Source: an uncultured virus (IMG/VR IMGVR_UViG_3300027782_000070)
Lineage: Duplodnaviria > Heunggongvirae > Uroviricota > Caudoviricetes
IMG/VR virus record: IMGVR_UViG_3300027782_000070
Length of the DNA stretch: 64,000 nt
Reading direction: 5' to 3' (one strand)
In this document: piece after piece, positions 3,806-25,200 of the stretch
Layout of the letters: the number at the start of each line of letters is the position of its first letter
Numbering within the stretch: position 1 is the first letter of the stretch
The notes under the pieces: model-generated
Seen by the model: only the letters and a program-made list of their open reading frames with translations
Database searches by the model: none
Told to the model about the DNA's origin: nothing
Position numbers and translations under genes: made by a program

Positions 3806-4492
3806 ATGCTTACCATTTCACAACCATTCCATCATCTTAATCTGCCTAAACTTGCAGACATTCCTACTGAAACTGTGAATGGTTCTCGTAAATATGTGGT
3901 AAATGGTAAACTATTGCCATCCATTACTTCTGTTACATCTTATCAAACTCGTCATAGTATCAATGAATGGCGTGAACGTGTAGGTGCTGAAGTAGCAAAT
4001 AAAATCAGTCAATTTGCTTCAACCAATGGCACAAAGTTTCACAGTATTGTAGAACAATATGTTGACAATTTTATTGACCTTGTAGAGTATGAAGGCAATG
4101 AACAGTATGAAGTTGCTCTCAAACTTTTCAGTCAATTTCAACACTTGCTTGATAGGATTAACAATGTTCATTATCAAGAATGTGCAATGTATTCTGAACA
4201 ACTTGGAATTGCAGGTCGTGTAGATTGTATTGCTGAATTTGATGGTCAGTTGTCTATCATTGACTTCAAGAGTTCTTCTAAACCAAAGTATGAATCTCAG
4301 ATTCTTGGTTATTTTGTGCAGGAGACAGGTTATGCTAAAATGTATGAGGAAATGACTGGTAGGAAAGTTACTCAAATTGTAACCTTGATTTCTTGTCATT
4401 CAGGGGAGACACAAGTTTATGTCAGAAACCCTGATGATTATGTTGACACTCTTAAGCAGTATATTGCTGACTACAATAACAAAGGTAACTGA
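3806..4492 (+). CDS. PD-(D/E)XK-family exonuclease
   Basis: PSITSV, GTKFH, E..., IAGRVDCI and IIDFKSS motifs; start moved to ATG 3806. Confidence 0.85.
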   Translation: MLTISQPFHHLNLPKLADIPTETVNGSRKYVVNGKLLPSITSVTSYQTRHSINEWRERVGAEVANKISQFASTNGTKFHSIVEQYVDNFIDLVEYEGNEQYEVALKLFSQFQHLLDRINNVHYQECAMYSEQLGIAGRVDCIAEFDGQLSIIDFKSSSKPKYESQILGYFVQETGYAKMYEEMTGRKVTQIVTLISCHSGETQVYVRNPDDYVDTLKQYIADYNNKGN

Positions 4493-8586: not shown

Positions 8587-8805
8587 ATGACACAAACTAA
8601 ACAAAACAAAGTATTCCAAATTGAACTGTGTAAAGAGGATGCAGAGAGAATCCTTGTTGCACTAGAACTCTTGCGGAGTAAGGTATTGCATTTTGCACAA
8701 ACTACTGATCCCAGTTATAGCAAGGAAACTCCCTGGTTAGAGTTTAGTTATGTGTCTGAGTTGCTGAATGATATGGAATGCAAATTAGATATAGATCAGT
8801 GGTGA
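8587..8805 (+). CDS. hypothetical phage protein
   Basis: 72-aa ORF, last gene before the non-coding locus. Confidence 0.6.
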   Translation: MTQTKQNKVFQIELCKEDAERILVALELLRSKVLHFAQTTDPSYSKETPWLEFSYVSELLNDMECKLDIDQW

Positions 8806-8845
8806 AATGTAGTGAAATCAGGATATAACTGAAATCAATTAAATG

Positions 8846-9139
8846 TGTGAATAAATGTATAGTAGTTTTCCACAAGTAAGTGTATATCCTGTGGAAAAAG
8901 TGTGTTAATTGTGTGATACTCAGTAAATGCCTCTGGTTGTTGTGATCTTGGCCCACATTCTATCACAAACTCCCAGAAATGTCAAGACCCCAGAGACACT
9001 GCAAATACTGGCACATGCCCCCTTGACAGTATAGCAAATGACAGTGAATATACCTGTGGAAAACTATTACAAACCTGTGGAAAAACCTGTGGAAAACTAT
9101 AGTAAATTGTGGAAAACTATTTTTCCACAGGTATATTCA
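8846..9139. repeat. cluster of DnaA-box-like 9-mers; candidate replication origin or DnaA-binding locus
   Basis: TTTTCCACA at 8866(+), 8890(-), 9055(-), 9076(-), 9088(-), 9108(-), 9121(+); TTATTCACA at 8846(-); perfect 19-bp inverted repeat 9045-9063/9121-9139. Confidence 0.7.
8948..9015 (-). promoter_or_regulatory. inverted (minus-strand) copy of the 68-bp cassette with a strong sigma70 promoter
   Basis: Minus strand reads TGTGCCAGTA...TTGACA (8985-8980), 17 bp, TAGAAT (8962-8957) with TG extension, at the same offsets as copy 3. Confidence 0.8.
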
Positions 9140-9219
9140 GTGGCACACAGTGGGGTATATTTAACAGTGAATGTGCAGTCCTGTGAGTATTCTTATCAAA
9201 ACACAGTGAGCTATACCTA

Positions 9220-9248
9220 TTGACAAATGTGCAGTCCTGTGTTATAGT
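9220..9248 (+). promoter_or_regulatory. sigma70-type promoter
   Basis: TTGACA, 17 bp, TATAGT with extended TG; spacer AATGTGCAGTCCTGTG duplicated at 9170-9185. Confidence 0.7.
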
Positions 9249-9526
9249 GAATTGGCAGTATGTGGGGGTGTTGGTGTGGGTTATTGTGGGGTAATGCGAA
9301 AAACCACAACTACCCTAACCTACAAACCTTTGAAACAGAGAGAACGATATAAAGATGAATAAAAAAATTTTTTGGGGTAAAAAAAATCCTGTGAGGTTGC
9401 TCTATGAGAGGGGTTATGGAACTACTATAAGTCCATTAGATGAGGTGCGTTATATTGTGAGCTGCCTTAGAGAAACTGTAAATATAGTTGTGACCAATTA
9501 TGTAAAAAAATTTTTGGGGGTAAAAA

Positions 9527-9682
9527 ATGAACTGTAAGTTGACTGCCAGAGATAGGATATTTTGTGAGGGTACTATGGCACAATGCCAGAAGACACTCTC
9601 AGATATTTCCATGATGATGGACATAGTTTCTATAGATTATGAGATAGAAGAGTTTGTGATTAGTATTGAGGATGACGAATGA
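9527..9682 (+). CDS. small hypothetical protein (51 aa)
   Basis: MNCKLTARDRIFCEG..., ATGA overlap with the next ORF. Confidence 0.5.
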   Translation: MNCKLTARDRIFCEGTMAQCQKTLSDISMMMDIVSIDYEIEEFVISIEDDE

Positions 9683-9990
9683 ACTGGTTTGAGTATTGGG
9701 TAGGACACTGTTGGATGCGTGGATGGCAGAGTATTGGAGGTGCCTTTAGGATATGGGGAGATTTAATGGGAGGGAATTATAAGGATTATGATTTGCCTAG
9801 AACAGTAGAAGACCCAGAAGCAGAATGTATTGAATGGTTCTGGTGGTCATTAGGAGAAGATACTGTATATTCAAAAGAATTTCTTGAGTATCTAATGCAG
9901 ATAGCAGAAGATGTAAAGAGTGGTAAGGTAAAGACTTATTCAATGGATGAAGTTATGGAGGATTTAAAAGGAGGTAGCAATGACATTTGA
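9679..9990 (+). CDS. hypothetical phage protein
   Basis: 103-aa Trp-rich ORF with upstream GAGG. Confidence 0.7.
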   Translation: MNWFEYWVGHCWMRGWQSIGGAFRIWGDLMGGNYKDYDLPRTVEDPEAECIEWFWWSLGEDTVYSKEFLEYLMQIAEDVKSGKVKTYSMDEVMEDLKGGSNDI

Positions 9991-10684
9991 TACTGTTTTT
10001 ATTTCTGATGTTCATTTAGGAACAGATAGGTGTAATACTGAGAAATTCTTAAAGTTTCTTAAAGGGATTAAGACTAAGAAACTTGTGATGGTTGGAGATA
10101 TCATAGACATCTATTGTATGGAAAAGTATGGAACACGATGGAAACGTGAACATACTGAATGTGTTCATGCACTTTTAGATTTGTGTAAAAAGGGTACTGA
10201 AGTTGTTTATGTTCTTGGCAATCATGAGGGAGTAGTTAGAAGGTATTGTAATTTTGAGCACAAGAACTTTATGATGTGCGATGAGTATGTTCATAAGGAT
10301 AATCAAGGTAATAAGTATCTTTGCACGCATGGCGATAAGCACTCTGAGTATTCTTCTGGTTCATGGAAGCAATTAATGTTTAACTGGGGATATGAGTTTA
10401 TTACGCCATTGAGTCTTTTTTTAAATCGTTATCTTAGGTTCTCTTTAGTTCATTTTTTAAAGAATACTATGCGTGGTAAAGGATATATTGATAAGTATGA
10501 GAATGATATTGTTGGATATTGCATTCAACAAGATAAGAAGTATGATGGTATTATCTGTGGACACATTCATCATGCAAACATTCGTAAATTTGGTAAGATG
10601 ATGTATATGTGTTGTGGAGATTTTGTCGATACCTGTTCTGCTATTTTAGAAAAGAATGGCGTTTATAGTTTGGAGAAATACTAA
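9980..10684 (+). CDS. calcineurin-like metallophosphoesterase (LpxH-like)
   Basis: SDVHLG, VGDIID, GNHE, THGD and GHIH motifs; AGGAGG ribosome-binding site. Confidence 0.85.
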   Translation: MTFDTVFISDVHLGTDRCNTEKFLKFLKGIKTKKLVMVGDIIDIYCMEKYGTRWKREHTECVHALLDLCKKGTEVVYVLGNHEGVVRRYCNFEHKNFMMCDEYVHKDNQGNKYLCTHGDKHSEYSSGSWKQLMFNWGYEFITPLSLFLNRYLRFSLVHFLKNTMRGKGYIDKYENDIVGYCIQQDKKYDGIICGHIHHANIRKFGKMMYMCCGDFVDTCSAILEKNGVYSLEKY

Positions 10685-10783
10685 TGAGCATTGAAGATCA
10701 GACAACATATACAAAAGAGATTGGTGAGTATCTTATGAAGGATGTATTAGTAAAACAGAATATTGATAGACTTTGCAAATTAC

Positions 10784-10903
10784 TGGTGGAGTCAATATGA
10801 CCCTGTTATGAGTTTACGGCATCTCTCAAATGACGTTGGTGCGGATGGGACTCTCTCCCGCCTGGTTTCCAATTTCCAGTTAAAGAATTGGTGGCGAGCC
10901 TGA
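10784..10903 (+). ncRNA. structured RNA, probably the cyanophage wcaG RNA motif
   Basis: Stems GTCA/TGAC and GGGA/TCCC; crossing pairs CTGG/CCAG and CCAATT/AATTGG (pseudoknot); upstream of nucleotide-sugar genes. Family assignment from memory, not searched. Confidence 0.55.
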
Positions 10904-10912
10904 ATGACCTAG

Positions 10913-10940
10913 AGGAGAGTTGCATAAACTCTCCTTTTTT
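10913..10940 (+). terminator. intrinsic terminator
   Basis: AGGAGAGTT-GCATA-AACTCTCCT followed by a T run. Confidence 0.8.
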
Positions 10941-10948
10941 GGTATAAT
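10920..10948 (+). promoter_or_regulatory. sigma70 promoter overlapping the terminator
   Basis: TTGCAT, 17 bp, TATAAT with extended TG. Confidence 0.6.
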
Positions 10949-10968
10949 AAATTAAAAGTTTTTTTTGT

Positions 10969-11484
10969 ATGAAAATCGGTTTTAATTGCAGTTCATTTGA
11001 TCTTTTCCATGCAGGGCATGTTACAATGCTAAAAATGGAAAAAGAACTGTGTGACTATTTGAAAGTAGCACTTCAAGTTGATCCTTCAATAGATAGACCT
11101 GGAATTAAAAATAAACCAGTACAGTCTGTATATGAAAGATATATACAACTGCAGGGATGTAAATATGTGGATGAAATTCTAGTATATGAGACTGAAGCAG
11201 ATTTACTTAATTTGATTCAAACTCAAACATTTCATATTCGTTTCTTGAGTGAGGAATATAGGCATATTGAAGTGACTGGTAAACAATATTGTATTGATAA
11301 TGGAGTTGAAATTTATTATCATTTGAGAAGACATCAATATTCATCAACAGAGATTAGAAATCGAGTTTATAATCTTGAGCAAAAAAAGAGAGAAGATAAA
11401 GAAGATAGGGCGCAAGAAACTGTGATAGGGCAATATTCTCCAGAAATTTTAGAAAAATATTCAATTAAAAATAACCAATCATGA
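10969..11484 (+). CDS. cytidylyltransferase (TagD/HIGH-type nucleotidyltransferase)
   Basis: FDLFHAGH (HxGH), KPVQSVYER, YVDEI and SSTEIR motifs. Confidence 0.85.
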   Translation: MKIGFNCSSFDLFHAGHVTMLKMEKELCDYLKVALQVDPSIDRPGIKNKPVQSVYERYIQLQGCKYVDEILVYETEADLLNLIQTQTFHIRFLSEEYRHIEVTGKQYCIDNGVEIYYHLRRHQYSSTEIRNRVYNLEQKKREDKEDRAQETVIGQYSPEILEKYSIKNNQS

Positions 11485-11507
11485 CAATCTTAGTTACTGG
11501 GGGGTAA
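11481..11507 (+). pseudogene. N-terminal stub of an NAD-dependent sugar epimerase/dehydratase
   Basis: ATGA-coupled MTILVTGG then stop, matching the start of the Rossmann ILVTGGxGxxG motif. Confidence 0.6.
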
Positions 11508-11566
11508 GGTAGAATATGTAGATTGTCTGGACCCCAGAAAAACTTATAAGAAAATTGTGATTACTT

Positions 11567-11752
11567 ATGCTGAACAAAAACGATAAGATTATCAGAGCAA
11601 AATTATACACGCCCCATGTATCTGATTTTGTATGTGAGCGTATGGATGGCACTCATTATCTGATGATGAATAGACATGAAACAGAATATTATGAATTACT
11701 TCCCAATCCTACAGGTGCCACAGAATGGATCTGGGGGGAGAAAATACAATGA
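11567..11752 (+). CDS. hypothetical protein
   Basis: 61-aa ORF with coupled stop/start. Confidence 0.55.
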   Translation: MLNKNDKIIRAKLYTPHVSDFVCERMDGTHYLMMNRHETEYYELLPNPTGATEWIWGEKIQ

Positions 11753-11904
11753 ATAGATACAAGGTTATTCTTTCAAGTATTGTAGATGGTGCTACAGTAA
11801 GGATTCAGTTTCCTGTGAATAGTGATATGAGTGCTCTGCAATTAAGAACTTACTATCTTCTGAAAGGTGGATTTTCTGTAAGTGATGTTGAGGTGTTTGA
11901 GTGA
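11749..11904 (+). CDS. small hypothetical protein (51 aa)
   Basis: MNRYKVILSSIV..., ATGA-coupled. Confidence 0.5.
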   Translation: MNRYKVILSSIVDGATVRIQFPVNSDMSALQLRTYYLLKGGFSVSDVEVFE

Positions 11905-11949
11905 TTATGAGGATTTATGAGGATTTATGAGGATTTATGAGGATTTATG
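11905..11949. repeat. tandem repeat, 4.5 x TTATGAGGAT
   Basis: Directly visible 10-bp period. Confidence 0.95.
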
Positions 11950-12008
11950 GCGCTTTGTCTCTGGCAGTATCTCTCTCATAAAGAACTAAATAAAAACAAA
12001 AAGATATA

Positions 12009-12674
12009 ATGGGAATAAGTTATAATCCTCGTATAGTCACTGATGGTCTTGTATTTTGTTTTGATGCCAAAAATGTCAAATCATATTCTGGTTCAGGAAC
12101 TTCTTTTACTGATATTGGTGGCGCTTTAGCAAGTAATTCTGGTAGTTTTGCTTCATATAGTTCTACTCCAGGTCACATTTCATTTAATGGATCTAATGGT
12201 TCTGGTATTCAGTTTCCATCTTCATCTATTCACGATACTCAAACTCCTAGTGTAGAGGTTTGGGTTAGAACAAATGCTCTTTCACAATATGGTTTTTGGT
12301 TTGAAAAAGGAACAGTTAATAGTCAGTATTCTTTGTTCCAAGAAGGAACAACTATTGTGTGGAGACACGCTGGGAATTCACAATATACAACTACATCTAC
12401 TTACATGACTACTGGTGTTTGGTATCAAGTAGTGGGAACTTATACTAGTGGTTCTCGTAAAACTTATATAAATGGTTCTTTAGTAACTTCAGATACTGTT
12501 TCTTACAGTGTCAATACTGGAGGATCTGGTATTGGGTTGGGTTCTTTTGGTGGGGGCCAAACTGGATATCAATTTAATGGTGATTTAGCAGTAGTTAAAG
12601 CATACAGTAAAGCACTCTCCGCAGATGAAATATCACAAAACTTTAATGCTCTCCGTTCAAGGTTCTCAATATAA
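12009..12674 (+). CDS. LamG/concanavalin A-like domain virion protein
   Basis: DGLVFCFDA...WYQVVGTY...YINGSL...ALSADEISQNFNA; late-type CTAAATA at 11986-11992. Confidence 0.8.
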   Translation: MGISYNPRIVTDGLVFCFDAKNVKSYSGSGTSFTDIGGALASNSGSFASYSSTPGHISFNGSNGSGIQFPSSSIHDTQTPSVEVWVRTNALSQYGFWFEKGTVNSQYSLFQEGTTIVWRHAGNSQYTTTSTYMTTGVWYQVVGTYTSGSRKTYINGSLVTSDTVSYSVNTGGSGIGLGSFGGGQTGYQFNGDLAVVKAYSKALSADEISQNFNALRSRFSI

Positions 12675-12677
12675 ATA
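12670..12677 (+). promoter_or_regulatory. T4-type late promoter
   Basis: TATAAATA. Confidence 0.7.
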
Positions 12678-12691
12678 CCTAAAAAACTATT

Positions 12692-12943
12692 ATGTACTCT
12701 GATAGAAACTTTCTTATTTTTCCAGTTACTGAACTACCAAAAGTAGATTTCTCCCAGGTGTGTGAGACTTCAAAAGAGACTGTAAGAAAAAGTGTTGATG
12801 AAACCAAGACATTTGTGAAATGGGATGGTGAAGAACCTGCATTTGTTGTTGATATTGAAGATGCAGAAGGTCCTTATACTTATGAGGAGATTTTGGTGAT
12901 TTTAGCAACAGAAGAATGGACTAAACCTATGGAGGAAATGTAA
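12692..12943 (+). CDS. small acidic protein associated with the LamG genes
   Basis: 83-aa ORF after a late promoter. Confidence 0.7.
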   Translation: MYSDRNFLIFPVTELPKVDFSQVCETSKETVRKSVDETKTFVKWDGEEPAFVVDIEDAEGPYTYEEILVILATEEWTKPMEEM

Positions 12944-14053
12944 GTGTTAGCACATAGTCCAAGTATTGTGATGAATGGATTGGTATTAGCACTGGATGCT
13001 GGAAATACCAAAAGTTATGGTGATAATACCGAGAACTTGCTTACTTATAGTGAGCAGTTTGATAATGCTATTTGGGCAAAACAAAATGGATTTAGTATAA
13101 CTTCAAATACTGCTATTGCACCTGATGGAACTCTTACTGCAGATACTGCATCTAGAGTAAATCTGGGTTCAGAATATTTGTATCAATCTACAAGTGCATC
13201 AGGAACATATACATTATCTTGTTGGGTAAGGGCAGTTACTGGAACAACTACATTTAATATGATTTCATATAATGGAGTAGATGGAACTACACAATCCCCA
13301 ACACTTACTGCAACAACTACTTGGCAAAGATTTTCTCTTACTGCAACAGTAACAACTAATAATGGTTGGTATCCTTGTATTCCAGCAGTATCTGGTGCTC
13401 AACTTTATATTTGGGGAGCACAATTAGAAAGAGGTTCATCAGTAGGTCCTTATTATCCAACAACAGCAACCACAAAAACACGAGGAACTACTTGGACTGA
13501 TTTAAGTGGTAATAATAACACTGGAACACTGACAAATGGACCATTATATAGTAGTGCAAATGCTGGGTCTATTGCTTTTGATGGAAGTAATGATTATGTA
13601 AGCACACCCGTATCAAGTCCAGGAAGTTTGCCCATTACTTTTGAGTTTTGGATTAATAGTACAACAAGCACTCCAGTTGGTATATTTGATTCTGCACCAG
13701 GACAAGTAAATGTCCTTAGAAATTATTCACCTGGATATTTGGAATGGTGGCCTAGTAATCCAAATGTAAATATGGGATTGTCTGCAAATACTTGGTATCA
13801 AATAGTTGCTGTATATAGATTTAATACAAATAGGTATATTGATTATTATAGAAATGGAACTTTGATATCAACAGTTATGGGAGACACAAATTCCAGTTTT
13901 ACTTGGACTACATTTACAATAGGTAATATTAATGGAGGTTCTGCTGGTAACTATTCTGGTAACTTGGCAAAATTTGCAATATACAACAGAGCACTCTCCG
14001 CAGCAGAAATCTCACAAAACTTTAATGCCCTTCGTGGTAGGTATTTAATCTAA
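12944..14053 (+). CDS. LamG-domain protein with an inserted carbohydrate-binding-like module
   Basis: Shared LamG N/C termini; insert NLLTYSEQFDNAIW...YIWGAQLE. Confidence 0.8.
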   Translation: MLAHSPSIVMNGLVLALDAGNTKSYGDNTENLLTYSEQFDNAIWAKQNGFSITSNTAIAPDGTLTADTASRVNLGSEYLYQSTSASGTYTLSCWVRAVTGTTTFNMISYNGVDGTTQSPTLTATTTWQRFSLTATVTTNNGWYPCIPAVSGAQLYIWGAQLERGSSVGPYYPTTATTKTRGTTWTDLSGNNNTGTLTNGPLYSSANAGSIAFDGSNDYVSTPVSSPGSLPITFEFWINSTTSTPVGIFDSAPGQVNVLRNYSPGYLEWWPSNPNVNMGLSANTWYQIVAVYRFNTNRYIDYYRNGTLISTVMGDTNSSFTWTTFTIGNINGGSAGNYSGNLAKFAIYNRALSAAEISQNFNALRGRYLI

Positions 14054-15516
14054 TGGCAGTACACGGAGGACCAAAAATAGCAACATCTGGATTAGTTCTT
14101 TCACTTGATGCTGCGAATAGCAGTAAGAGTACTCTGAGTGCCGTTGAAGTTCTTGTAGTTGCTGGTGGTGGAGGAGGAGGTTCTTGGCACGGAGGTGGAG
14201 GAGGTGGTGGAGGACTAATCTATAGTTCTGCAGTTTCTGTTACTCCTGGTTCTGCTGCTACTGTTACTGTTGGTGCTGGTGGTGCTGGTGGTGGAAATAC
14301 TGCTGCAGGAACTTCTCCAAACGGTGGAGGAAATGGTGGAAATTCTGTATTTGGTTCTTTGACTGCTATTGGTGGTGGAGGAGGAGGATCTTATCCAAAT
14401 AATGGTAGTAGTGGAGGTTCTGGGGGAGCAGGAACTAACTGGAGCGTGAGTGCAACTGGTGGTAGTGCAACATCTGGGCAAGGTTTTGCTGGAGGATCAA
14501 ATAATGGAGAAATTAATTATGGAGGAGGTGGTGGAGGTGCTGGAGGAACTGCTAAAGGTTTATCTAATAACTCTGGTGGAGATGGATTGCCTTATAATAT
14601 TTCTGGCACTCAAACTTATTATAGTGGTGGTGGAGGTGCTGGTGTTTATCCTGGATACGCAAATGGCACTTCCTATGGGTATGGTGGATTAGGTGGTGGG
14701 GGAAATGGTGGTGATGGTCCTCATGGTGGTGGAACTACTCCAGGAAATGGTAGTTCAAATACTGGTGGTGGAGGAGGTGGAGTTGCTGACCTCTACAAAA
14801 TTGGTGGTGAAGGTGGTTCCGGTATAGTAATCGTAAGATATCCAGGACCACAAAAAGCAATAGGGGGAGCAGTTACTTCTAGTGGTGGTTATACCATTCA
14901 TACATTTACTTCAGTAGGTTCCACTACATTTACTCCTTTATCTACTTCTAGTGGTTCTGCGATTTCAGGACTTACAGATATATCCAATAATGGTAACTTT
15001 GGAACTCCTGTAAATGGACCGACTTATAGTAGTGCGAATGGGGGGTCTATTGTTTTTGATGGGGTTGATGATTATGTGAATTGCGGAACTCCTTCAATAA
15101 GTGCTGGAAAAATAACAGTAAATGCTTGGGTGAAAATAAATGCTGGTTCATTACTTCAACATATAGTAGATTCTGCATCCAATGCTTGGCATTTGGCAAT
15201 ATTAAACGATAATAGACCTTATTTTTATAATGGTTCAGTATACCATCAAGCTGCTCCAATACTTAATGTTGGTCAATGGTATATGCTTACGGGAGTTCAA
15301 GGAACAACACTGGACATTTATATCAATGGTGTTCTTGGGCAAAGTTTGGCAAGTAACGTAAATGTAACAACAAATAATGTGATTTTGGGTGCATGGCAAT
15401 CTGGATCTAGACCATTAACAGGAAACATAGCACAAGCATCAATATACAACAGAGCACTGACAGCAGATGAAATCTCACAAAACTTTAATGCAACCAGAGG
15501 AAGGTATGGGGTTTAA
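14053..15516 (+). CDS. LamG-domain protein with an inserted glycine-rich domain
   Basis: Shared LamG termini; insert VEVLVVAGGGGGG...GGSGIVIVRY...YTIHTF. Confidence 0.8.
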   Translation: MAVHGGPKIATSGLVLSLDAANSSKSTLSAVEVLVVAGGGGGGSWHGGGGGGGGLIYSSAVSVTPGSAATVTVGAGGAGGGNTAAGTSPNGGGNGGNSVFGSLTAIGGGGGGSYPNNGSSGGSGGAGTNWSVSATGGSATSGQGFAGGSNNGEINYGGGGGGAGGTAKGLSNNSGGDGLPYNISGTQTYYSGGGGAGVYPGYANGTSYGYGGLGGGGNGGDGPHGGGTTPGNGSSNTGGGGGGVADLYKIGGEGGSGIVIVRYPGPQKAIGGAVTSSGGYTIHTFTSVGSTTFTPLSTSSGSAISGLTDISNNGNFGTPVNGPTYSSANGGSIVFDGVDDYVNCGTPSISAGKITVNAWVKINAGSLLQHIVDSASNAWHLAILNDNRPYFYNGSVYHQAAPILNVGQWYMLTGVQGTTLDIYINGVLGQSLASNVNVTTNNVILGAWQSGSRPLTGNIAQASIYNRALTADEISQNFNATRGRYGV

Positions 15517-15522
15517 TCAATA

Positions 15523-15551
15523 TTGACATAGGATAAATAAGGTAGTATCAT
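15523..15551 (+). promoter_or_regulatory. sigma70 promoter
   Basis: TTGACA, 17 bp, TATCAT. Confidence 0.7.
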
Positions 15552-15590
15552 TGAATTGGTACGTACCAATATAAAAAATTGACTTAAGTT

Positions 15591-16346
15591 ATGGCTAAAG
15601 GATTTACTGTAAAAGCAAAAACACCTGAACCAGAAGAACAACCATTGTTTGACATTGAAAGGTGTAAGGAAAATATTAAAGGTAAGAGTATTGTATTTTG
15701 TTTACCTGGAAGGGGAGTATCTTATACCTTCCTAAAGAGTTTTGTGCAACTTTGTTTTGATTTAGTACAATCTGGAGCATCTATTCAGATTTCTCAAGAT
15801 TATAGTTCTATGGTGAACTTTGCACGTTGTAAAGTACTTGGTGCCAATGTACTTGCAGGACCAGATCAAATTCCCTGGCAAGGTAAGTTAACTTATGACT
15901 ATCAACTCTGGATTGATAGTGACATTGTATTCAACACCAATGCCTTCTGGGCTGTCTTTGATATGGATAAGGACATTGCTGCTGGTTGGTATGCTACAGA
16001 GGATGGTAGGACCACCTCAGTTGCACACTGGTTAGAAGAGGATGACTTTAAAAAGAATGGTGGTGTTATGAATCATGAGATGGTAGATACCATTCAGAAT
16101 AGGAAAAAACCATTTACTGTAGATTATACTGGATTTGGTTGGACCTTGATTAAGAAAGGTGTCTTTGAGCATGAAATGATGAAGTATCCTTGGTTTGCTC
16201 CTAAGATGCAAGTATTTGACTCTGGAGAAGTTCAAGATATGTGTGGCGAAGATGTTTCATTCTGTCTTGATGCAAAGAAAGCAGGATTTGAAATTTGGTG
16301 TCATCCACAAGTTCGTGTAGGTCATGAAAAAACAAGAATCATTTAG
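15591..16346 (+). CDS. GT-A fold glycosyltransferase-like protein
   Basis: WIDSD (DxD), TGFGWTLIK, GEDVSFC and VGHEK motifs. Confidence 0.75.
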   Translation: MAKGFTVKAKTPEPEEQPLFDIERCKENIKGKSIVFCLPGRGVSYTFLKSFVQLCFDLVQSGASIQISQDYSSMVNFARCKVLGANVLAGPDQIPWQGKLTYDYQLWIDSDIVFNTNAFWAVFDMDKDIAAGWYATEDGRTTSVAHWLEEDDFKKNGGVMNHEMVDTIQNRKKPFTVDYTGFGWTLIKKGVFEHEMMKYPWFAPKMQVFDSGEVQDMCGEDVSFCLDAKKAGFEIWCHPQVRVGHEKTRII

Positions 16347-19298: not shown

Positions 19299-22200
19299 AT
19301 GGATCAAAATAAAAAAGTAGTTAAAATTAATGATATTGTTGCAAACCAAATACCAGAGTTTATTTTATCAGAGAATCCAAATTTTTCAGAATTTTTAAAA
19401 CAATATTACATTTCACAAGAATTTCAAAGTTCTTCAATAGATCTTGCCGAAAATTTAATAGAATATAAGAATGTAGATACTTTTGATAATACAAATTTAA
19501 TTACCAATACCACTTTAACTTCTGTTGTAGAATTCTTTGATGATGTTATTAATGTAGACTCTACAAATGGATGGCCAAAAGAATATGGTCTTTTAAAAAT
19601 TGATGATGAAATTATTACATATACAGGAATTACTACTAACTCCTTTACTGGATGTATCAGAGGATTTAGTGGAATAGAATCATTATCAACTGATAATAAT
19701 CCAGAATTTTTAAAGTTTTCCCAAACAGATGCTAATGAGCATCTATTAACATCAATTGTCTATAATTTAAGCAATCTTTTCTTACAAGAATTTTTTAGGA
19801 AAATTAAATATCAATTTTCTCCTGGATTTGAAGATGCTATTTTTGACCCACAAATTAACCCACAAAACTTTATTAGTAAGGTAAAGACCTTTTATCAATC
19901 AAAAGGTACAGATGAAGCATACAAAATTTTATTTAAAGTTTTGTATGGAGAAAATGTAGAAGTAATTAAACCTGGAAATTTAACATTTACCAGTTCTGAT
20001 GATAAATGGGTAGTTTGTGAAACTTTTGCTTGTGAATTAATTAGTGGAAATCCTACAAAAATAGATGGACAAACTCTTTATCAAGATGCATCAACTGATG
20101 GATCTATTTTATCTGCAAATGGATCCATCTATAGTGTAGATAGATTTTACTTAGATAATAAAATTTATTACAAATTAAATCTATTTTCAGGGTATTCTAA
20201 TAATTTAAGTTCTAAAGGTTCTATTAGTGGAACTTTTGTAGAAACACCAAAGACTTATGTAGTAGAAACTGTTAATGCTAATGAGTCTACTATTACTGTA
20301 AATTCTACCATAGGTTTCCCAAATACAGGAACTTTGATTATAAATGGCATCACTGTAACATATACAGACAAAACCAATAATCAATTTTTAAATTGTTTAG
20401 GTTTAACTCAAAATATTTTACCAAAATATGAAGTATATGGTTCTAACTATGTTTATGCTTATGATACTGAGTTAAATCAACAAGTAACTTTAAGAATTCT
20501 TCCATTATTATCTGGATTGAAAGAAACTAATGCATTGTATGCTACAGAAAAAGATCCTATTCAAGTAGAAAATCTTGGTAGTTTATCTGATAATGGATTC
20601 ACAAAAACCTTAATTTACAACCATCCACTTACTGTATATTGTGGAAAAGTAAAACAAACTTTAAATTCTGTAGATGTAGAAGGTTTAGGATTATCAAATG
20701 GTATTTGTAGAACTTTATATAATCACAAATTAAAGACTGGAGATTCCATTAGCCTTTATAATTATAACACAGATGAATTAATTGTAGGAAACTCAAATAT
20801 TACAGTAAATGTACTTTCAAAAAAAGAGTTTTCTTTAAGTGTTTCTGGAATTGGAACTGATAGTATTGGTAAAAAAATAGTAGCTAAGAGAGTATTAAAG
20901 AAATCATTATCAATACAGTATCCAGAAATCAATAATAAATTTACATCAAATATACAAGATTCTTATGAAGATGATAATTATAATTACATAACATCTAATG
21001 GATTCCCCAATTTTAGCAATATAACCCCATACAAGAGAGAATTTACATTTACTGGAATTGGAATAACATTAAATGGGTTACATAATTTTAATGACGGGGA
21101 ATTAGTAACACTTATTGATGCTTATAATGTAGGATTTTCTACTGGAGAATCTTTTTATGTCAAAGTTGTAGATACAGACACTATTAATTTGGCATATTCA
21201 GCAGAAAGTGCTCATTTGGGATCATTTGTTACATTACCAGTTGGCATTTCAACATTAATTGATTTTAATTTATACAATAATAACTTTACATCTAGTAAAT
21301 CATTTAAGAAAATACCAAAAATCTTAACTGTTCCTACAGAAGAACAAGTATCTCCACCAGGAAACATTGGTATTTTAGTTAATGGCGTTGAACTACAAAA
21401 TTATAAATCATTTGATAAAATTTATTATGGAAAAATTAATAAAATAAATGTATTAAATGGTGGAATTGATTATGACATTACTAATCCCCCAAGATATGAA
21501 GTAGATTTTGGTAGTGATACAGAAACTGTTTTAGTTTCCAATATGACTGGAACTTTAACTGAACTTATTGTTACAGATTCTGGGTATAATTACAAAACCA
21601 CACCAACAGTTACATTGTCTGGTGGAGGCACTGATGGAACTGTAAAAACTGATGTGAAGATGAAATTAAAATCTAAAATAATAGAATTTAATGCTGGTTC
21701 TACTGCCAATCCTACAATTGTCAATACAATTAATGAAAGATTTGATATTGTTCATGGATTTGTTACTGGAGATGCTGTTATATACCAATCTTTTAATCAA
21801 ACCCCAATTCCTATTGGATTAGTTGATGCTGATGGGTCATTAATTAATAATGGAACTTATTATATAATTAATTTAAATAATGGAAATTCATTTGCTTTAG
21901 CATCTACAAAAAATGATGCTTTACTTGGGAATTCCATTAATTTGAGATCTACAGGAACTGGAATACAAAGATTTGTTGGGGTAGATAAAAAATTAGTAAT
22001 AGATAAAGTCAATATAGTTGGTGGAAATTTAGAATTTAAATATAAGAAATTATTTACATATGAAGAAGGTGTAAATTATTTTGATAATATTTTTATAATT
22101 CAAAATCATGGATTAATAGAAAATGATGAGGTATTCTATTCATTTACTGGCACTGCATTAAATAATCTTTCAACAACTACAAAATATTATGTTAAAAAAC

Positions 22201-25200
22201 TTGATAATAATAAATTTAAATTAAAAACAAGCAAAACATCTACTAGTACTGTAAATTTTGGAGCATCAGATTCTACATCTATTCATTATTTTGAATATTC
22301 TCCAATAACTGTTAATATTTCTGGAGCATTAGAAAAAGATATTTCAAATAACTTTATAGGAACACCAGCTACAATTAAACCAATTGTTTTAGGAAAAGTA
22401 GATACAGTTAATGTAGTAAAATCAAAATCAGGATATGGTAGTGATTCTATAGTTAATTTTAATTATTCTCCAAAAGTTTCAGAATTAGTTGGGTCTGGTG
22501 CATCTATACAAGCATTAATTTTTAATGGAGAAATTAATTCAGTTTTAGTAAAAACTAAAGGTACAAATTATTTTAATTCTATTAAACTCCAAGTAGTTGG
22601 AACAGGATATGGAGCAGTTTTAGAACCCAACATAGTAAATGGAGAAATTGTTTCTGTAAACATAGTAAATCCAGGCGTTGGATATGATAATACCACAAGA
22701 ATTAATATTATTAGTGTAGGGAAAGATTTAAAAGTTTCTTCTGAATTACAATCTTGGACTTTAAATGAAATTGATAAACTTGCACTATCAAATACTATTG
22801 ATGGTGTTTTACTTGGAAAAAATTATAATTTGTTTGGAAATATTTTTGGAATATTCCATTTAACCAATTCCAATTTCTTTACTGAATTTAGAATCCCATC
22901 AGTAACAACTACAAATCCTCCTACAGTCCATTCTAAAATTATTGGATGGGCATATGATGGTTGTCCAATCTATGGACCAGATGGATATAAAAACTCAGAT
23001 GGAACTGGTGGCATAAAAAGATTAACTTCTAGCTATAATTTAAAACAAAATAAAGAAACCCCAAATACATATTCATTTATTGAAGATTATGAATATATTA
23101 ATGGATTAGGAGATTTGGATGAACACAATGGAAGATATTGCATAACTCCAGAATATCCAAATGGGGTTTATGCATATTTCTGCACTATGACCAATAATAG
23201 GATTCCAGTATTTCCATACATTATTGGAGATACTTACAAGTTTGTAATTGAGTCTGATAATTTTAATCTTAAAATTAATCAATCTATCAATTTTAACAAT
23301 TTAGATATTGTAAAACATACTCTTCCATATGGGGTAGAAAATAAAGATAATTATTATGATTATGTAAAATTTAATGCCAACTCATCAGTTAATGATGGTA
23401 TAGTAGTTAATACTTCTTTAGGGTCTGTAGATGATATTTTAGTTTTAAATGGAGGAAAATCTTATTCCATTTTAGATGCAATTAATTTTGATAATACAAA
23501 TACCGATGGATTTGGTGCTTTTGCAGAAGTTTCAGAATTGTCTGGTGTTGGTGTCAATAGTATAACTTCAGTAATAAATCAAATATCAAACTTAACTTTT
23601 ACTTATGATAATAATAAAGTTATTGGAATATCTACACTCCCACATAATTTAATTAATGATACTTATGTTAATATAAGTTCTATATCTGATGCAAATTTTG
23701 TAGAAATTGAAGGATTTAGAAAAATTAATACTTTATCATTTACTACTAATTTAGCAGAATCTTTAGGTAGTCAATCAATAACTGGAACCTTTACATCAAT
23801 AAAAGTAAAATCTTCTATTTTTAATTTTGATATTGATTTTAAAATTCAAATAGAGGATGAAATTTTAACTGTAGTTGGATTAGATTATGAAAATAATGCA
23901 GTCAATGTTCAAAGGGAACTATTTGCTCCAGCACATGCTGCTAATGTAACTGTTACATTATTATCAAACAAAATTTATTTTGATTATCCAAAGATTTTAA
24001 ATTTAAATGAATCTAATGATTCATATTATTTCTTACCATCTAGTTCAGTTTCTATTGGAACAGATAGGTCAGTTGGTATGGGCAACACTTTAACCATTTA
24101 TCCTTTAGGATATGGTGTAAGTGTTACCAAATTTATATCTCCTGGTGAAATCTTATTGCCAAATAATAAATTTAATACTGGGGATAGTATTGTATATCAT
24201 CCAGGACAAAATCCAATTATAGTAAATGGTGGAGCAAGTTTAAATACTTTAGCAAATTTATATGTTATTAAAACTGGAGAAAATACTATTGGATTAGTAA
24301 CAGAAAGAAGTCAACTAAAGTCAACAGATAATTTAATACTTTTTAGTGCATCACAAACATTAGATACTTCTGGATTACACAAGTTTACTACAAATAGAGA
24401 TATAGTTACTGGAAATGTTTTATTCAATCAAGTTACAGTAAATACAACAGAAAATCATAATTTATCAGTTAATGATGAAGTATATTTAAATGTTACTTCT
24501 GGCATTACAACCACGCTAACTGTTACTTATGGTTCAGGATCTGCAAAATTATCAATCAATGGATTAATAAATCCAAAAATTGATTTATATAAAAATGATA
24601 CTGTTATATTTGATTTATCCTCAAGTACTTTATCTAACACAGTTTTTAAACTTTATACTGATAAAAACTTTGTAAATGAATATCTTGGCAATCAGGAAAA
24701 TGGATTAGAAGTTATTAAAGCAGATACTTCACTAACATTGAAAATATCAGAATATACTCCAAGAATACTTTATTATAACATAGAATCTACAATTAAAAAA
24801 GTTTATATTGATGAGACTGTAGATAGATTTAATACTATTTTAACAAATGAAAGTTACTATTCAAATAAACATTTAAATGTGGTATCAACAACAGATACAT
24901 CATTTACATTAAATTATCCTAATGTTTGCGAAAGACCTCAATACACATCAGCATTATCTACATTATTATATAATGTAATCTCATCAAATTATTCTGGTCC
25001 TATTGCAAAAATTAATATTTTATCCAAAGGATGTGAATATAAAAAATTACCTTTAATTAAATCTATTTCTGGAAATGGTTCTGATGCAAACTTATTACCA
25101 ATAAGCAATACTATTGGAAAAATAATAAAATCAAAAATTATTAATAATGAGTTTGTTTTACCTTCAGATAAAACATTAAATCCATTTTCAAATCTTTATT

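Follow-up and report, generated by a model that had tools for sequence, protein, structure and literature searches.

Replication without the host initiator is classically exemplified by T4-like phages. A cluster of sequences resembling cyanobacterial DnaA boxes was noticed in a stretch of 64,000 nucleotides (the window) that belongs to a T4-like cyanomyovirus found in freshwater metagenomes; four sequencing runs labelled as freshwater metagenome contained half or more of the sampled words of the window. The question raised by this locus is whether the cluster is genuine, which protein would bind it, and what it would do for a phage of this kind.

A cluster of DnaA-box words in the largest gene-free gap

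The original prediction placed seven perfect copies of the 9-mer TTTTCCACA in the largest gene-free stretch of the window. A word search of the window recovered all seven, each at the predicted position and on the predicted strand: 8866 (plus), 8890 (minus), 9055 (minus), 9076 (minus), 9088 (minus), 9108 (minus) and 9121 (plus). The gap that contains them, defined as DNA without a plus-strand open reading frame (ORF) of at least 50 aa, extends from 8806 to 9354. Its 549 bp indeed make it the largest of the window, the runner-up measuring 284 bp, in a count that disregards ORF 9038-9223, a mere translation of the box array.

Counting the word against expectation had been proposed as a check, and was done within the 64,000-nt window. 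The window contains 10 copies of TTTTCCACA where 1.61 are expected, and none of 100 dinucleotide-preserving shuffles of the window reached 10 copies. Seven of these copies lie inside 264 bp, against three in the remaining 63.7 kb; at the rate of the rest of the window 0.012 copies would be expected in 264 bp, and the Poisson probability of finding at least seven is about 1e-17. Because of this enrichment relative to the shuffled sequences, a chance origin of the cluster is excluded. Ten public genome records of Kyanoviridae (eight cultured phages and two metagenome-assembled genomes, 168-252 kb) contain two to 10 copies each.

The boxes fall into two groups. A left convergent pair is formed by 8866-8874 on the plus strand and 8890-8898 on the minus strand, with a start-to-start distance of 24 bp. 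The main array (9055..9129) consists of four tandem minus-strand boxes at 9055, 9076, 9088 and 9108, spaced by 21, 12 and 20 bp, followed by the inverted plus-strand box 9121-9129. An additional word, TTATTCACA, is present at 8846 on the minus strand as had been reported, but relatives do not retain it as a box, the spot reading TGAGAATAA or TGTTAATAA in them. It was therefore rejected as an eighth box; judged by its conservation, it is part of a conserved AT-rich word and no conserved box.

Two predicted promoters, repeats and a leader surround the boxes

From left to right the locus is composed of an AT-rich element, the convergent box pair, a leftward promoter, the phased tandem boxes, and a rightward promoter with its leader. 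The AT-rich tract (8810..8865, without strand) holds the conserved word AAATGTGTGAATAAATGTA at 8841-8859. Columns 8841-8862 are 0.9-1.0 identical among 25 relatives, and a similar word was found in phages P-TIM68 and DSL-LC02. The tract is AT-richer than its neighbours, as claimed, but in a stability profile of this AT-rich window its duplex stability merely places it among the least stable 9-16% of 50-bp windows. It is a weak candidate for a downstream unwinding element, located about 85-140 nt downstream of the predicted start of the leftward promoter.

This leftward promoter, of the sigma-70 type, lies on the minus strand in block 8940..8990, which is the most conserved block of the region. 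It is composed of a -35 hexamer TTGACA (8985-8980), a 17 bp spacer and a TG-extended -10 hexamer TAGAAT (8962-8957), and scored 11 of 12 consensus matches in a promoter scan; its columns are 0.9-1.0 identical in the 25 relatives. Transcription is predicted to start near 8950. The block is also present in phage Sf-FS3, and P-TIM68 has a copy that is further diverged. A second conserved TTGACA, within ccccTTGACAGTATAG, is located on the plus strand at 9023..9028. In most relatives it is immediately followed by an additional box, and the window has a deletion at that spot.

The main array is bracketed by an inverted repeat (9045..9139) whose arms, 9045-9063 and 9121-9139, have the perfect 19-bp core that the original prediction described; complementarity extends over 28 nt at 89%. 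Further to the right, a 41-nt direct repeat (76%) occupies 9145-9185 and 9201-9241 on the plus strand, with ACAGTG(A) repeats in and around it. Its second copy contains the -35 hexamer of the rightward promoter (9220..9248, plus strand). The latter is also of the sigma-70 type, with TTGACA, a 17 bp spacer and a TG-extended TATAGT (11 of 12 consensus matches in the promoter scan), and both hexamers are 0.9-1.0 identical in the 25 relatives. The rightward transcript would start near 9255 and thus begin with a conserved leader (9255..9392, plus strand) that comprises a G-rich stretch, GGTAATGCGAAAAA (9290-9303), CCCTAACCTACA (9313-9324) and an A7 T6/variable loop/A8 element (9361-9392). The leader word CCTAACCTACA also occurs in Sf-FS3, P-SSM2 and S-SSM7, all of them without a box cluster. 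No Rfam family matched the leader, two chance matches at E values up to 1 being far below the gathering scores, and a tRNA search found none.

Contigs of an approximately 90%-identical relative were present in the one RNA-library run, one of them covering 8594-8991 and 9042-9169 and another 9146-9761. Such contigs give no strand, start or level, and DNA may be present in libraries of this type; they were not counted as evidence of transcription.

Genes flanking the locus

The gap is preceded by a 72-aa plus-strand ORF (8587..8805) of unassigned function, which served as the marker gene of the locus in relatives. An alignment of nine homologues showed 16 invariant columns, and the protein was modelled as a two-helix hairpin (pLDDT 83.3). 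It matched no PHROG family, and its single Pfam match falls under the curated cut-off. The first ORF downstream (9355..9537, plus strand) is listed as 60 aa. Because the conservation of 9355-9390 resembles that of the leader rather than that of coding DNA, translation probably starts later, at the in-frame GTG 9391 or ATG 9403. Homologues of this ORF were found downstream of the box cluster in relatives. More generally, the small genes at 8587, 9355, 9527 and 9679, all with unassigned functions, travel with the cluster, and in five box-less phages they were not found within 6 kb of the marker gene.

Searches for an initiator encoded by the phage itself gave negative results. A Bac_DnaA_C domain was found neither in the complete box-bearing genomes of DSL-LC03, DSL-LC02 and P-TIM68 nor in G001, a viral record near-identical to the window, and G001 also lacks a Bac_DnaA domain. 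Among the flanking ORFs no Rep-type initiator gene was recognised.

The box cluster is conserved in related phages

The original prediction had proposed to look for the cluster at the syntenic position in related cyanophages. Relatives were fetched by the upstream 72-aa protein alone, independently of boxes, which yielded 41 loci, 40 of them with downstream DNA. Within 900 bp downstream of the 72-aa gene, three to eight perfect boxes were present in 35 of the 40, one in a single locus and none in four, so that copy number ranges from 0 to 8. The 1.6-kb upstream flanks contained no perfect box in any of the 41 loci. The cluster thus recurs at the syntenic position, in relatives whose 72-aa protein is in most cases just 42-55% identical.

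Box-poor relatives have TGTGGATAA (that is, TTATCCACA), TTTTCAACA or TGGGGAAAA at the homologous places; these are one-mismatch variants, and substitutions at box sites hence remain inside the DnaA-box family. A footprint test gave a modest result: box columns were 0.70 identical, the remaining columns 0.53, and equal or better scores were obtained with 184 of 5000 random placements (p ~0.04). Together these comparisons support the view that the boxes are a conserved feature under selection. Among the 25 relatives, conservation is higher at the promoters than at the boxes. Box units have been gained and lost between close kin, and in P-TIM68 and DSL-LC02 the boxes are displaced with respect to the promoters and to the AT-rich word, which argues against a precise unwinding geometry.

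The cassette was also encountered without a box cluster: the leader word in P-SSM2, S-SSM7 and Sf-FS3, and the leftward promoter block, of these three, in Sf-FS3 only (P-SSM2 and S-SSM7 were searched whole, Sf-FS3 by its 5-kb locus). As judged from these genomes, the boxes are a dispensable addition to a cassette built on promoters, which many relatives retain in box-less form.

An alternative bait, the 234-aa gene at 9980-10684, was rejected. With this bait the cluster was seemingly missing in 76 of 80 relatives, but the gene proved to be a mobile cassette that occurs in other contexts; the four relatives that share the local context each have seven boxes.

Every lineage moreover has a second repeated word: ACAGTGA in the window, and TTCGTTATA, TTCGTG or TCATAAGA in others. 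These words are 6-8 bp long, occur in 4-8 copies on one strand, and may be iterons. Beyond the family, arrays of the same 9-mer are present in many unrelated viral contigs, including microviruses. When the cluster region of a relative was compared by BLAST with public phage records, Microvirus mar31 was the only match, and it matched via the repeated boxes.

The boxes resemble those of cyanobacterial chromosomes

The 9-mer TTTTCCACA has been termed a 'species-specific' cyanobacterial DnaA box, and binding of DnaA in vitro was reported for cyanobacterial origins with such boxes, according to the available portion of that article (PMC4674748). We compared 191 phage boxes, whose extended consensus is C-TGTGGAAAA-C-T, with 35 chromosomal arrays of cyanobacteria. 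The two sets prefer the same flanking bases, namely C at -1 and at +9 and T at +10. Same-strand spacings in the phages were 11-12 bp in 22 cases and 19-22 bp in 51, 13-18 bp never being observed, and in the chromosomal arrays 11-12 bp in 22 cases and 19-22 bp in 58, both sets having been partly picked with a pattern that permits 11-23 bp only. Neighbouring boxes on opposite strands were 78-79 bp apart in 24 instances and adjacent pairs 23-24 bp apart in 16, counted over 32 distinct relatives; in the loci displayed, the former distance separates a middle box from the array and the latter is the width of the left pair.

In a sample of 301 genomes from the cyanobacterial phylum, 111 contained tandem box pairs, compared with six genomes for a reversed control pattern. 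Of 20 small genomes of this phylum, which may not be of the clade of the host, two had six to seven perfect boxes within 1.5 kb upstream of dnaN, four had one and 14 had none. The assignment of the phage words as DnaA boxes of the cyanobacterial type is thus borne out by the consensus given in the available part of the published description (PMC4674748), the conservation in 35 of 40 relatives, the variants within the family, and host-like flanks and spacing. We consider it very probable that host DnaA binds them.

Comparison with known origins and DnaA-box loci

The proposal that the locus is built like a cyanobacterial oriC holds for the boxes and their spacing. Phage array and oriC share the 9-mer, the flanks (C before, C-T after) and tandem spacings of 11-12 and 19-22 bp. 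In other respects the likeness fails: the AT-rich tract is a weak one, related phages can do without the boxes, and strong divergent promoters lie on the flanks. Moreover, cyanobacterial oriC arrays adjoin dnaN, whereas the array of this lytic T4-like phage is beside neither dnaA nor dnaN. The basal unwinding system includes DnaA-trios, three or more NAN repeats with consensus 3'-GAT-5' within 16 bp of a box (PMC8287927). Inspection by eye of the DNA beside the boxes gave no convincing run; two TAG triplets directly adjoin box 8866 and lack conservation in relatives, and the pattern as published is permissive enough for AT-rich DNA to satisfy it by chance. GC skew, which is uninformative for a T4-like phage, does not change sign at the cluster, being positive on both sides with a steeper slope from 9.0 to 16.5 kb.

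Origins of T4 itself provide another comparison. As far as the consulted sections of a review go, oriF and oriG pair a promoter with an A+T-rich unwinding element that lies downstream and measures about 100 bp; oriE relies on an early promoter (PMC3016281). The candidate likeness to oriF (uvsY) and oriG (gene 34) is that of the leftward promoter followed 85-140 nt downstream by the mildly unstable AT-rich word. The promoters of oriF and oriG are MotA-dependent and of the middle mode, whereas that of the phage cassette has the sigma-70 -35 hexamer TTGACA and in this respect is like the early-mode promoter of oriE. T4 origins, unlike the cassette, have no DnaA boxes, and the word 'DnaA' is nowhere mentioned in the T4 review (PMC3016281).

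T5-like phages provide a precedent among lytic phages, since eight DnaA boxes in their non-coding region are described in the part of a preprint that was available (10.1101/866236). By the same partial account, the iss region of T5 likewise belongs to a lytic phage with its own replication genes, and contains about eight boxes in a large, repeat-rich non-coding early region for which a role has been proposed, namely holding of the DNA at the membrane. The T5 boxes form pairs 3 bp apart inside the IRC/IRD inverted repeats of the terminal repeat, and half of them are off-consensus. The boxes studied here are, in contrast, perfect and form phased tandem arrays with gaps of 2-3 or 10-13 bp, at an internal locus with promoters on its flanks. 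The suggestion that such an array had not been described consequently stands for T4-like phages, for which full-text literature searching found no description, but not for lytic phages in general. In the paper on DSL-LC03 the terms DnaA, origin of replication and intergenic do not appear.

In iteron-type origins, as in plasmids and in phage P1, an AT-rich region is combined with iterons for Rep and with boxes for host DnaA. The phage cassette likewise has DnaA boxes, an AT-rich element and a second repeated word; these second repeats are short, and the cognate Rep of such origins has no counterpart recognised among the flanking ORFs. The datA locus of E. coli likewise groups high-affinity boxes at a distance from the chromosomal origin and could lower free DnaA, as far as the portion at hand of its description tells. 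It works with IHF and promotes hydrolysis of DnaA-ATP, whereas the phage cluster is located on an invading, multiplying genome.

What the boxes may do

Our preferred reading, with a probability of about 0.4, is that the DnaA-box array belongs to an early control cassette and acts as a DnaA-assisted promoter/R-loop origin. That the locus is a replication origin at all is to us a possibility with somewhat less than even odds. Soon after injection, host RNA polymerase would fire both promoters, and host DnaA would then be loaded cooperatively onto the phased boxes. The leftward promoter and the AT-rich element 85-140 nt downstream would constitute an origin of the T4 oriF/oriG type, in which an R-loop of the transcript primes DNA synthesis. 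Bound DnaA would aid the opening of the locus or time its firing, and the first round of phage replication would thereby be tied to a replication-competent host. DnaA would also be soaked up by the boxes, as a by-product, once phage copies build up.

A helper function at an origin is our best guess over two other roles for bound DnaA, each of which we regard as unlikely. The boxes, about seven per genome, could be a decoy comparable to datA, which multiplies with the phage, draws DnaA from the host oriC and so halts new host rounds, with no role at the phage locus itself. Perfect sites of the high-affinity type in host-like phased arrays would suit this, as would a copy number that varies freely (0 to 8), with units that come and go among close kin as expected for a dose-type function, and a place within the cassette that is not fixed between lineages. 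It is moreover established for E. coli that boxes on a plasmid, and likewise datA, titrate DnaA, according to the available part of the source (PMC5835720). A decoy could, however, sit anywhere, whereas the boxes are confined to a single control cassette and are missing from all of the 1.6-kb upstream flanks; their relative distances are conserved (78-79 bp 24 times, 23-24 bp 16 times), and many successful relatives do without boxes. Alternatively, DnaA might serve as a transcription factor that represses, activates or blocks the divergent early promoters, so that early expression would read the DnaA state of the host (replication or energy). DnaA is known to regulate promoters through boxes, since titrating it away de-represses dnaA, as the accessible text of the same article states (PMC5835720). 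The rightward promoter has the array 50-130 bp upstream of it, the left pair falls at about +52 to +84 of the leftward transcript, a box directly follows the TTGACA of ccccTTGACAGTATAG in most relatives, and nothing else in the region is as conserved as the two promoters. A promoter switch nevertheless usually needs fewer sites than five to eight phased boxes, and box-to-promoter positions vary across lineages.

The two remaining explanations do without DnaA. It is distinctly improbable that a phage protein or another host protein reads the 13-bp word CCTGTGGAAAACT, the likeness to DnaA boxes being coincidence or mimicry. The conserved word does exceed 9 bp, with flanks at -1, -2, +9 and +10, and the cluster travels with the small genes 8587, 9355, 9527 and 9679, which were not found near the marker in five box-less phages; the second repeated word of each lineage suggests that other binders probably act at the locus too. 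On the other hand, chromosomal arrays of cyanobacteria show the same flanks and spacing, the variants in relatives are other canonical DnaA boxes, the same arrays in unrelated phages including a microvirus fit a universal host protein, and the linked 72-aa protein was modelled as a plain two-helix hairpin. Hardly credible is the view that the palindromic pairs act as hairpins or terminators in both RNAs, or that the repeats are neutral products of slippage. A terminator scan did flag palindrome 9108-9129 on the minus strand, a 9-bp stem appears possible for the left pair in the leftward RNA, and close relatives differ by gains and losses of tandem units. Against this, the majority of the boxes are direct rather than inverted and at helical-turn spacing, the stems have only three G-C pairs, and the cluster is kept in 35 of 40 relatives despite a bait protein at 42-55% identity in most.

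Implications for cyanomyovirus replication

Returning to the preferred reading of a DnaA-assisted promoter/R-loop origin, we tentatively suggest, with less confidence than in that reading itself, that box-bearing T4-like cyanophages joined the host initiator to such an origin, so that DnaA would gate the first round of replication. The cassette of about 450 bp offers a precise place to test. If the reading is correct, it would represent the first case of an origin dependent on host DnaA among T4-like phages, and would mark the replication start of cyanomyoviruses. Phage replication would then start only in hosts with active DnaA. Activity of cyanobacterial DnaA may follow light; if it does, the start of phage replication would be tied to light as well. 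These abundant viruses of lake picocyanobacteria may borrow DnaA for the start or timing of their replication, may use it to read the state of the host, or may disarm host replication by soaking up DnaA. Finally, the arrays in unrelated viral contigs, including those of microviruses, suggest that capture or use of DnaA may be a widespread and little-studied phage strategy.

The box cluster in the window

All seven perfect copies of TTTTCCACA, the cyanobacterial-type DnaA box, that the original prediction had placed in the window were present (8866+, 8890-, 9055-, 9076-, 9088-, 9108- and 9121+). The 9-mer occurs ten times in the window against an expectation of 1.61, a number reached by none of 100 shuffled sequences, and seven of the ten copies are packed into 264 bp. 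The predicted inverted repeat is indeed perfect over 19 bp, and the largest gene-free stretch corresponds to 549 bp without a + strand ORF (8806-9354), the runner-up being 284 bp. An ORF at 9038-9223 was rejected as a gene because it only translates the box array, and its outside matches are confined to the boxes. Two further elements of the prediction stood in part. TTATTCACA is present at 8846 but does not qualify as a box, since relatives do not preserve one there; the tract at 8810-8865 is AT-rich, but its low stability ranks just within the top 9-16% of 50-bp windows. The clustering of boxes itself is confirmed.

The window belongs to a T4-like cyanomyovirus. Its genes match PHROG profiles of the gp6 baseplate wedge, the gp18 sheath, the gp23 major head protein and a gp46-like nuclease, and the head protein is ~71% identical to P-SSM2 and many Synechococcus phage homologues. 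All ORFs of at least 120 aa are on the + strand except one (4019-4399), which is nested within a longer + strand ORF. A near-identical viral record of 44.6 kb (G001) has the same seven boxes with equal spacing, and four sequencing runs, labeled freshwater metagenome, contain at least half of the window's sampled words. Within 18000-40000 the G+C content drops to 0.25-0.29 over giant structural genes (19299-27488 and 31816-38262), the early region having 0.35-0.40.

Conservation of the cluster in relatives

Relatives were fetched by alignment of the 72-aa protein encoded directly upstream of the boxes (8587-8805, + strand) alone, which yielded 41 loci, 40 of them with downstream DNA (32 distinct sequences). 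The expectation that the cluster is kept at the same locus held: three to eight perfect boxes were found within 900 bp downstream in 35 of the 40 loci, a single box in one and none in four, and the 1.6-kb upstream flanks of all 41 loci contained no box. As the 72-aa protein is 42-55% identical to that of the window in most loci, the box cluster is conserved across real divergence. At the homologous places box-poor loci carry TGTGGATAA (the classical TTATCCACA box), TTTTCAACA, TGTGGAGAA or TGGGGAAAA; therefore, variation is confined to the DnaA-box family. Among close kin entire box units come and go, and the boxes left over remain perfect. When 28 distinct sequences were aligned and 25 scored, leaving out the three closest to the window, identity was 0.70 in box columns versus 0.53 elsewhere, a value matched by 184 of 5000 random placements. 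This conservation signal is modest, and the most conserved parts of the region in this alignment are two promoters.

In one lineage (L385-L387) an extra several hundred bases downstream of the 72-aa gene separate the leftward-promoter block from the remains of the array, where the boxes have degenerated into TGTGGAAAT and TGGGGAAAT-like words; the lineage resembles a natural variant in which the array was lost. A 234-aa metallophosphoesterase-like gene (9980-10684; 80 relatives, 58-100% identity) was discarded as bait: its relatives are mostly box-less, but the four of 80 that share the window's local gene context all have seven boxes. This gene is a mobile cassette. In addition, 9980-15590 looks like an insertion in the window, because the homologue of 9679-9990 closely precedes that of 15591-16346 in several relatives of the lineage.

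Architecture of the cassette

The order of elements around the boxes is fixed among relatives. An AT-rich word (AAATGT...AATAAATGTA; element at 8810-8865) is followed by a convergent box pair and by a block of ~50 bp (8940-8990), 0.9-1.0 conserved, which on the - strand contains TTGACA, 17 bp and a TG-extended -10 (11 of 12 consensus positions in the window). Then come ccccTTGACAGTATAG, usually next to a box that is deleted in the window, the tandem box array, a rightward promoter TTGACA-17-TATAGT (9220-9248; 11 of 12 consensus positions) and a leader (9255-9392) with GGTAATGCGAAAAA, CCCTAACCTACA and an A7T6/loop/A8 motif. The leader word occurs without a box cluster in phages P-SSM2, S-SSM7 and Sf-FS3, of which only Sf-FS3 also matched the leftward promoter block, again without boxes. 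The P-TIM68 cassette has one palindromic pair immediately upstream of the rightward promoter, and in DSL-LC02 the box pair lies on the opposite side of the AT-rich word. These box-less cassettes and shifted pairs indicate that the boxes are an add-on, not fixed in position, to an older promoter-based cassette.

The non-coding leader, with GGTAATGCGAAAAA, CCCTAACCTACA and an A7T6/variable loop/A7-8 motif, is conserved among distant Kyanoviridae with or without boxes (window 9255-9392 and 9504-9528; P-SSM2, L207 4180-4280; S-SSM7, L208 4140-4230; Sf-FS3, L011 3125-3200), and the motif is present twice in the window. The leader matched no Rfam family; it could function in cis as a regulatory RNA or be an element of bent DNA, and its conservation suggests that the true start of ORF 9355-9537 is later than listed. 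A second repeated word, ACAGTG(A), lies near the window boxes (9040-9260; four copies versus 0.04 expected). Other lineages have their own words beside the boxes, namely TTCGTTATA in locus L037 (6-8 copies, one strand), TTCGTG in L370 and TCATAAGA/TCTTATGA in DSL-LC03 (L010). These words resemble iterons and might be bound by phage proteins specific to each lineage.

Boxes in other phages and in cyanobacteria

Three boxes in tandem were found at no fewer than 114 loci on viral contigs (at least 114), and full flanks were available for only 80 of the 114 listed. Of the latter 114, 31 have one or more of the eight genes that flank the window cluster, four more share other early-region genes, and one matched solely via the spurious array ORF. 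Counted over ten entire public phage records, TTTTCCACA is scattered in P-SSM2 and S-CAM9 (four copies each), S-SSM7 and S-CAM7 (two each), ACG-2014f and S-SRM01 (three each) and S-SKS1 (five). DSL-LC03 has ten copies, seven of them inside 457 bp, DSL-LC02 has five including one pair, and P-TIM68 has four, including a single palindromic pair located in the corresponding intergenic region. DSL-LC02 and DSL-LC03 are described as metagenome-assembled genomes in the available text of PMC10611076.

Among the viral matches listed (L013-L126), at least three tandem TTTTCCACA also occur in many unrelated contigs of 4 kb to 284 kb and GC 0.26-0.66 (for example L024, L044, L054 and L063). One group of ~42-kb contigs (GC 0.54) has 4-6 boxes, near the contig end in some members, and the L054 flank resembles actinobacterial phage terminase genes. 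Microvirus mar31 (MZ089777.1; 5.2 kb, from marmot faeces) contains 12 head-to-tail 11-bp units CCTGTGGAAAA in non-coding DNA between its capsid and pilot-protein genes (L012 1500-1625), a pure phased array of DnaA boxes carried by an ssDNA phage.

Across 191 phage boxes, the preferred flanking bases are C on the 5' side of the box and C-T on its 3' side, and same-strand neighbors are spaced 11-12 bp 22 times, 19-22 bp 51 times and 13-18 bp never. The same triple pattern gave at least 123 bacterial loci. Of the 80 listed, 35 were counted as cyanobacterial by title; the others include Saccharibacteria, Clostridia, Streptococcus, Acidobacteriota and Bacteroidota. In the 35 cyanobacterial arrays a spacing of 11-12 bp was counted 22 times and one of 19-22 bp 58 times, and the flank preferences equal those of the phage boxes. 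As the search patterns admit only 11-23 bp, what the phage and chromosomal arrays have in common is the gap at 13-18 bp and not the range. Tandem box pairs were found in 111 of 301 sampled genomes of the cyanobacterial phylum, the reversed control pattern in six. In 20 small genomes of this phylum, which may not be the phage's host clade, the 1.5 kb upstream of dnaN (L339-L358) contained 6-7 perfect boxes in two, one in four and none in 14; locus L348 has nine relaxed boxes and zero perfect ones.

Possible function

Comparative evidence strongly supports the DnaA-box identity of the window array. No DnaA DNA-binding domain is encoded in the three complete box-bearing phage genomes or in G001, and host DnaA is very probably the protein that would bind the array. 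That some other protein is the binder is improbable, and that the array amounts to RNA hairpins or chance is very improbable.

The leading reading, to which we assign a probability of roughly 0.4, is that the array would help an origin by bringing host DnaA to a T4-type promoter plus AT-rich element. According to the available text of PMC3016281, T4 oriF and oriG consist of a promoter and a downstream A+T-rich unwinding element within ~100 bp, the transcript serving as R-loop primer, and oriE relies on an early promoter. The conserved leftward promoter of the cassette aims at the box pair (~+52 to +84) and the AT-rich word (~+85 to +140). Iteron-type origins combine repeated words with host DnaA boxes and an AT-rich element, and the second words beside the phage boxes recall this arrangement. 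However, the boxes are dispensable and mobile within the cassette, the AT-rich tract is weak, GC skew has no switch at the cluster, and no convincing DnaA-trios, as defined in the available text of PMC8287927, were seen. The array might instead act as a sponge that draws the host initiator away: the boxes are perfect, vary freely in copy number and reside on a multiplying genome, and extra boxes are known to titrate DnaA in E. coli. A decoy, though, has no need of one cassette or of conserved internal distances, and we consider this unlikely. To the same low degree, DnaA might control phage promoters, as boxes lie upstream of, inside or downstream of three promoter-like elements.

No account of DnaA boxes or a replication origin of this kind in cyanophages or cyanomyoviruses was found in the full-text literature, as covered by titles and abstract starts. 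Judged by titles, cyanophage together with DnaA box led only to cyanobacterial-genome papers; the matches listed for the 9-mer TTTTCCACA included no phage title, and the sole match for a cyanomyovirus replication origin concerns a siphovirus. The terms DnaA, origin of replication and intergenic are all absent from the available text of the DSL-LC03 paper (PMC10611076). In T5-like phages eight DnaA boxes are reported from the non-coding injection-stop region, for which the available text of 10.1101/866236 proposes a membrane-anchoring model. These boxes are the closest lytic-phage precedent for the window array, which would be an instance of a mobile genome that carries host DnaA boxes. The array is of real interest, as T4-like phages are considered to begin replication independently of the host initiator and the locus is small, conserved and easily tested.
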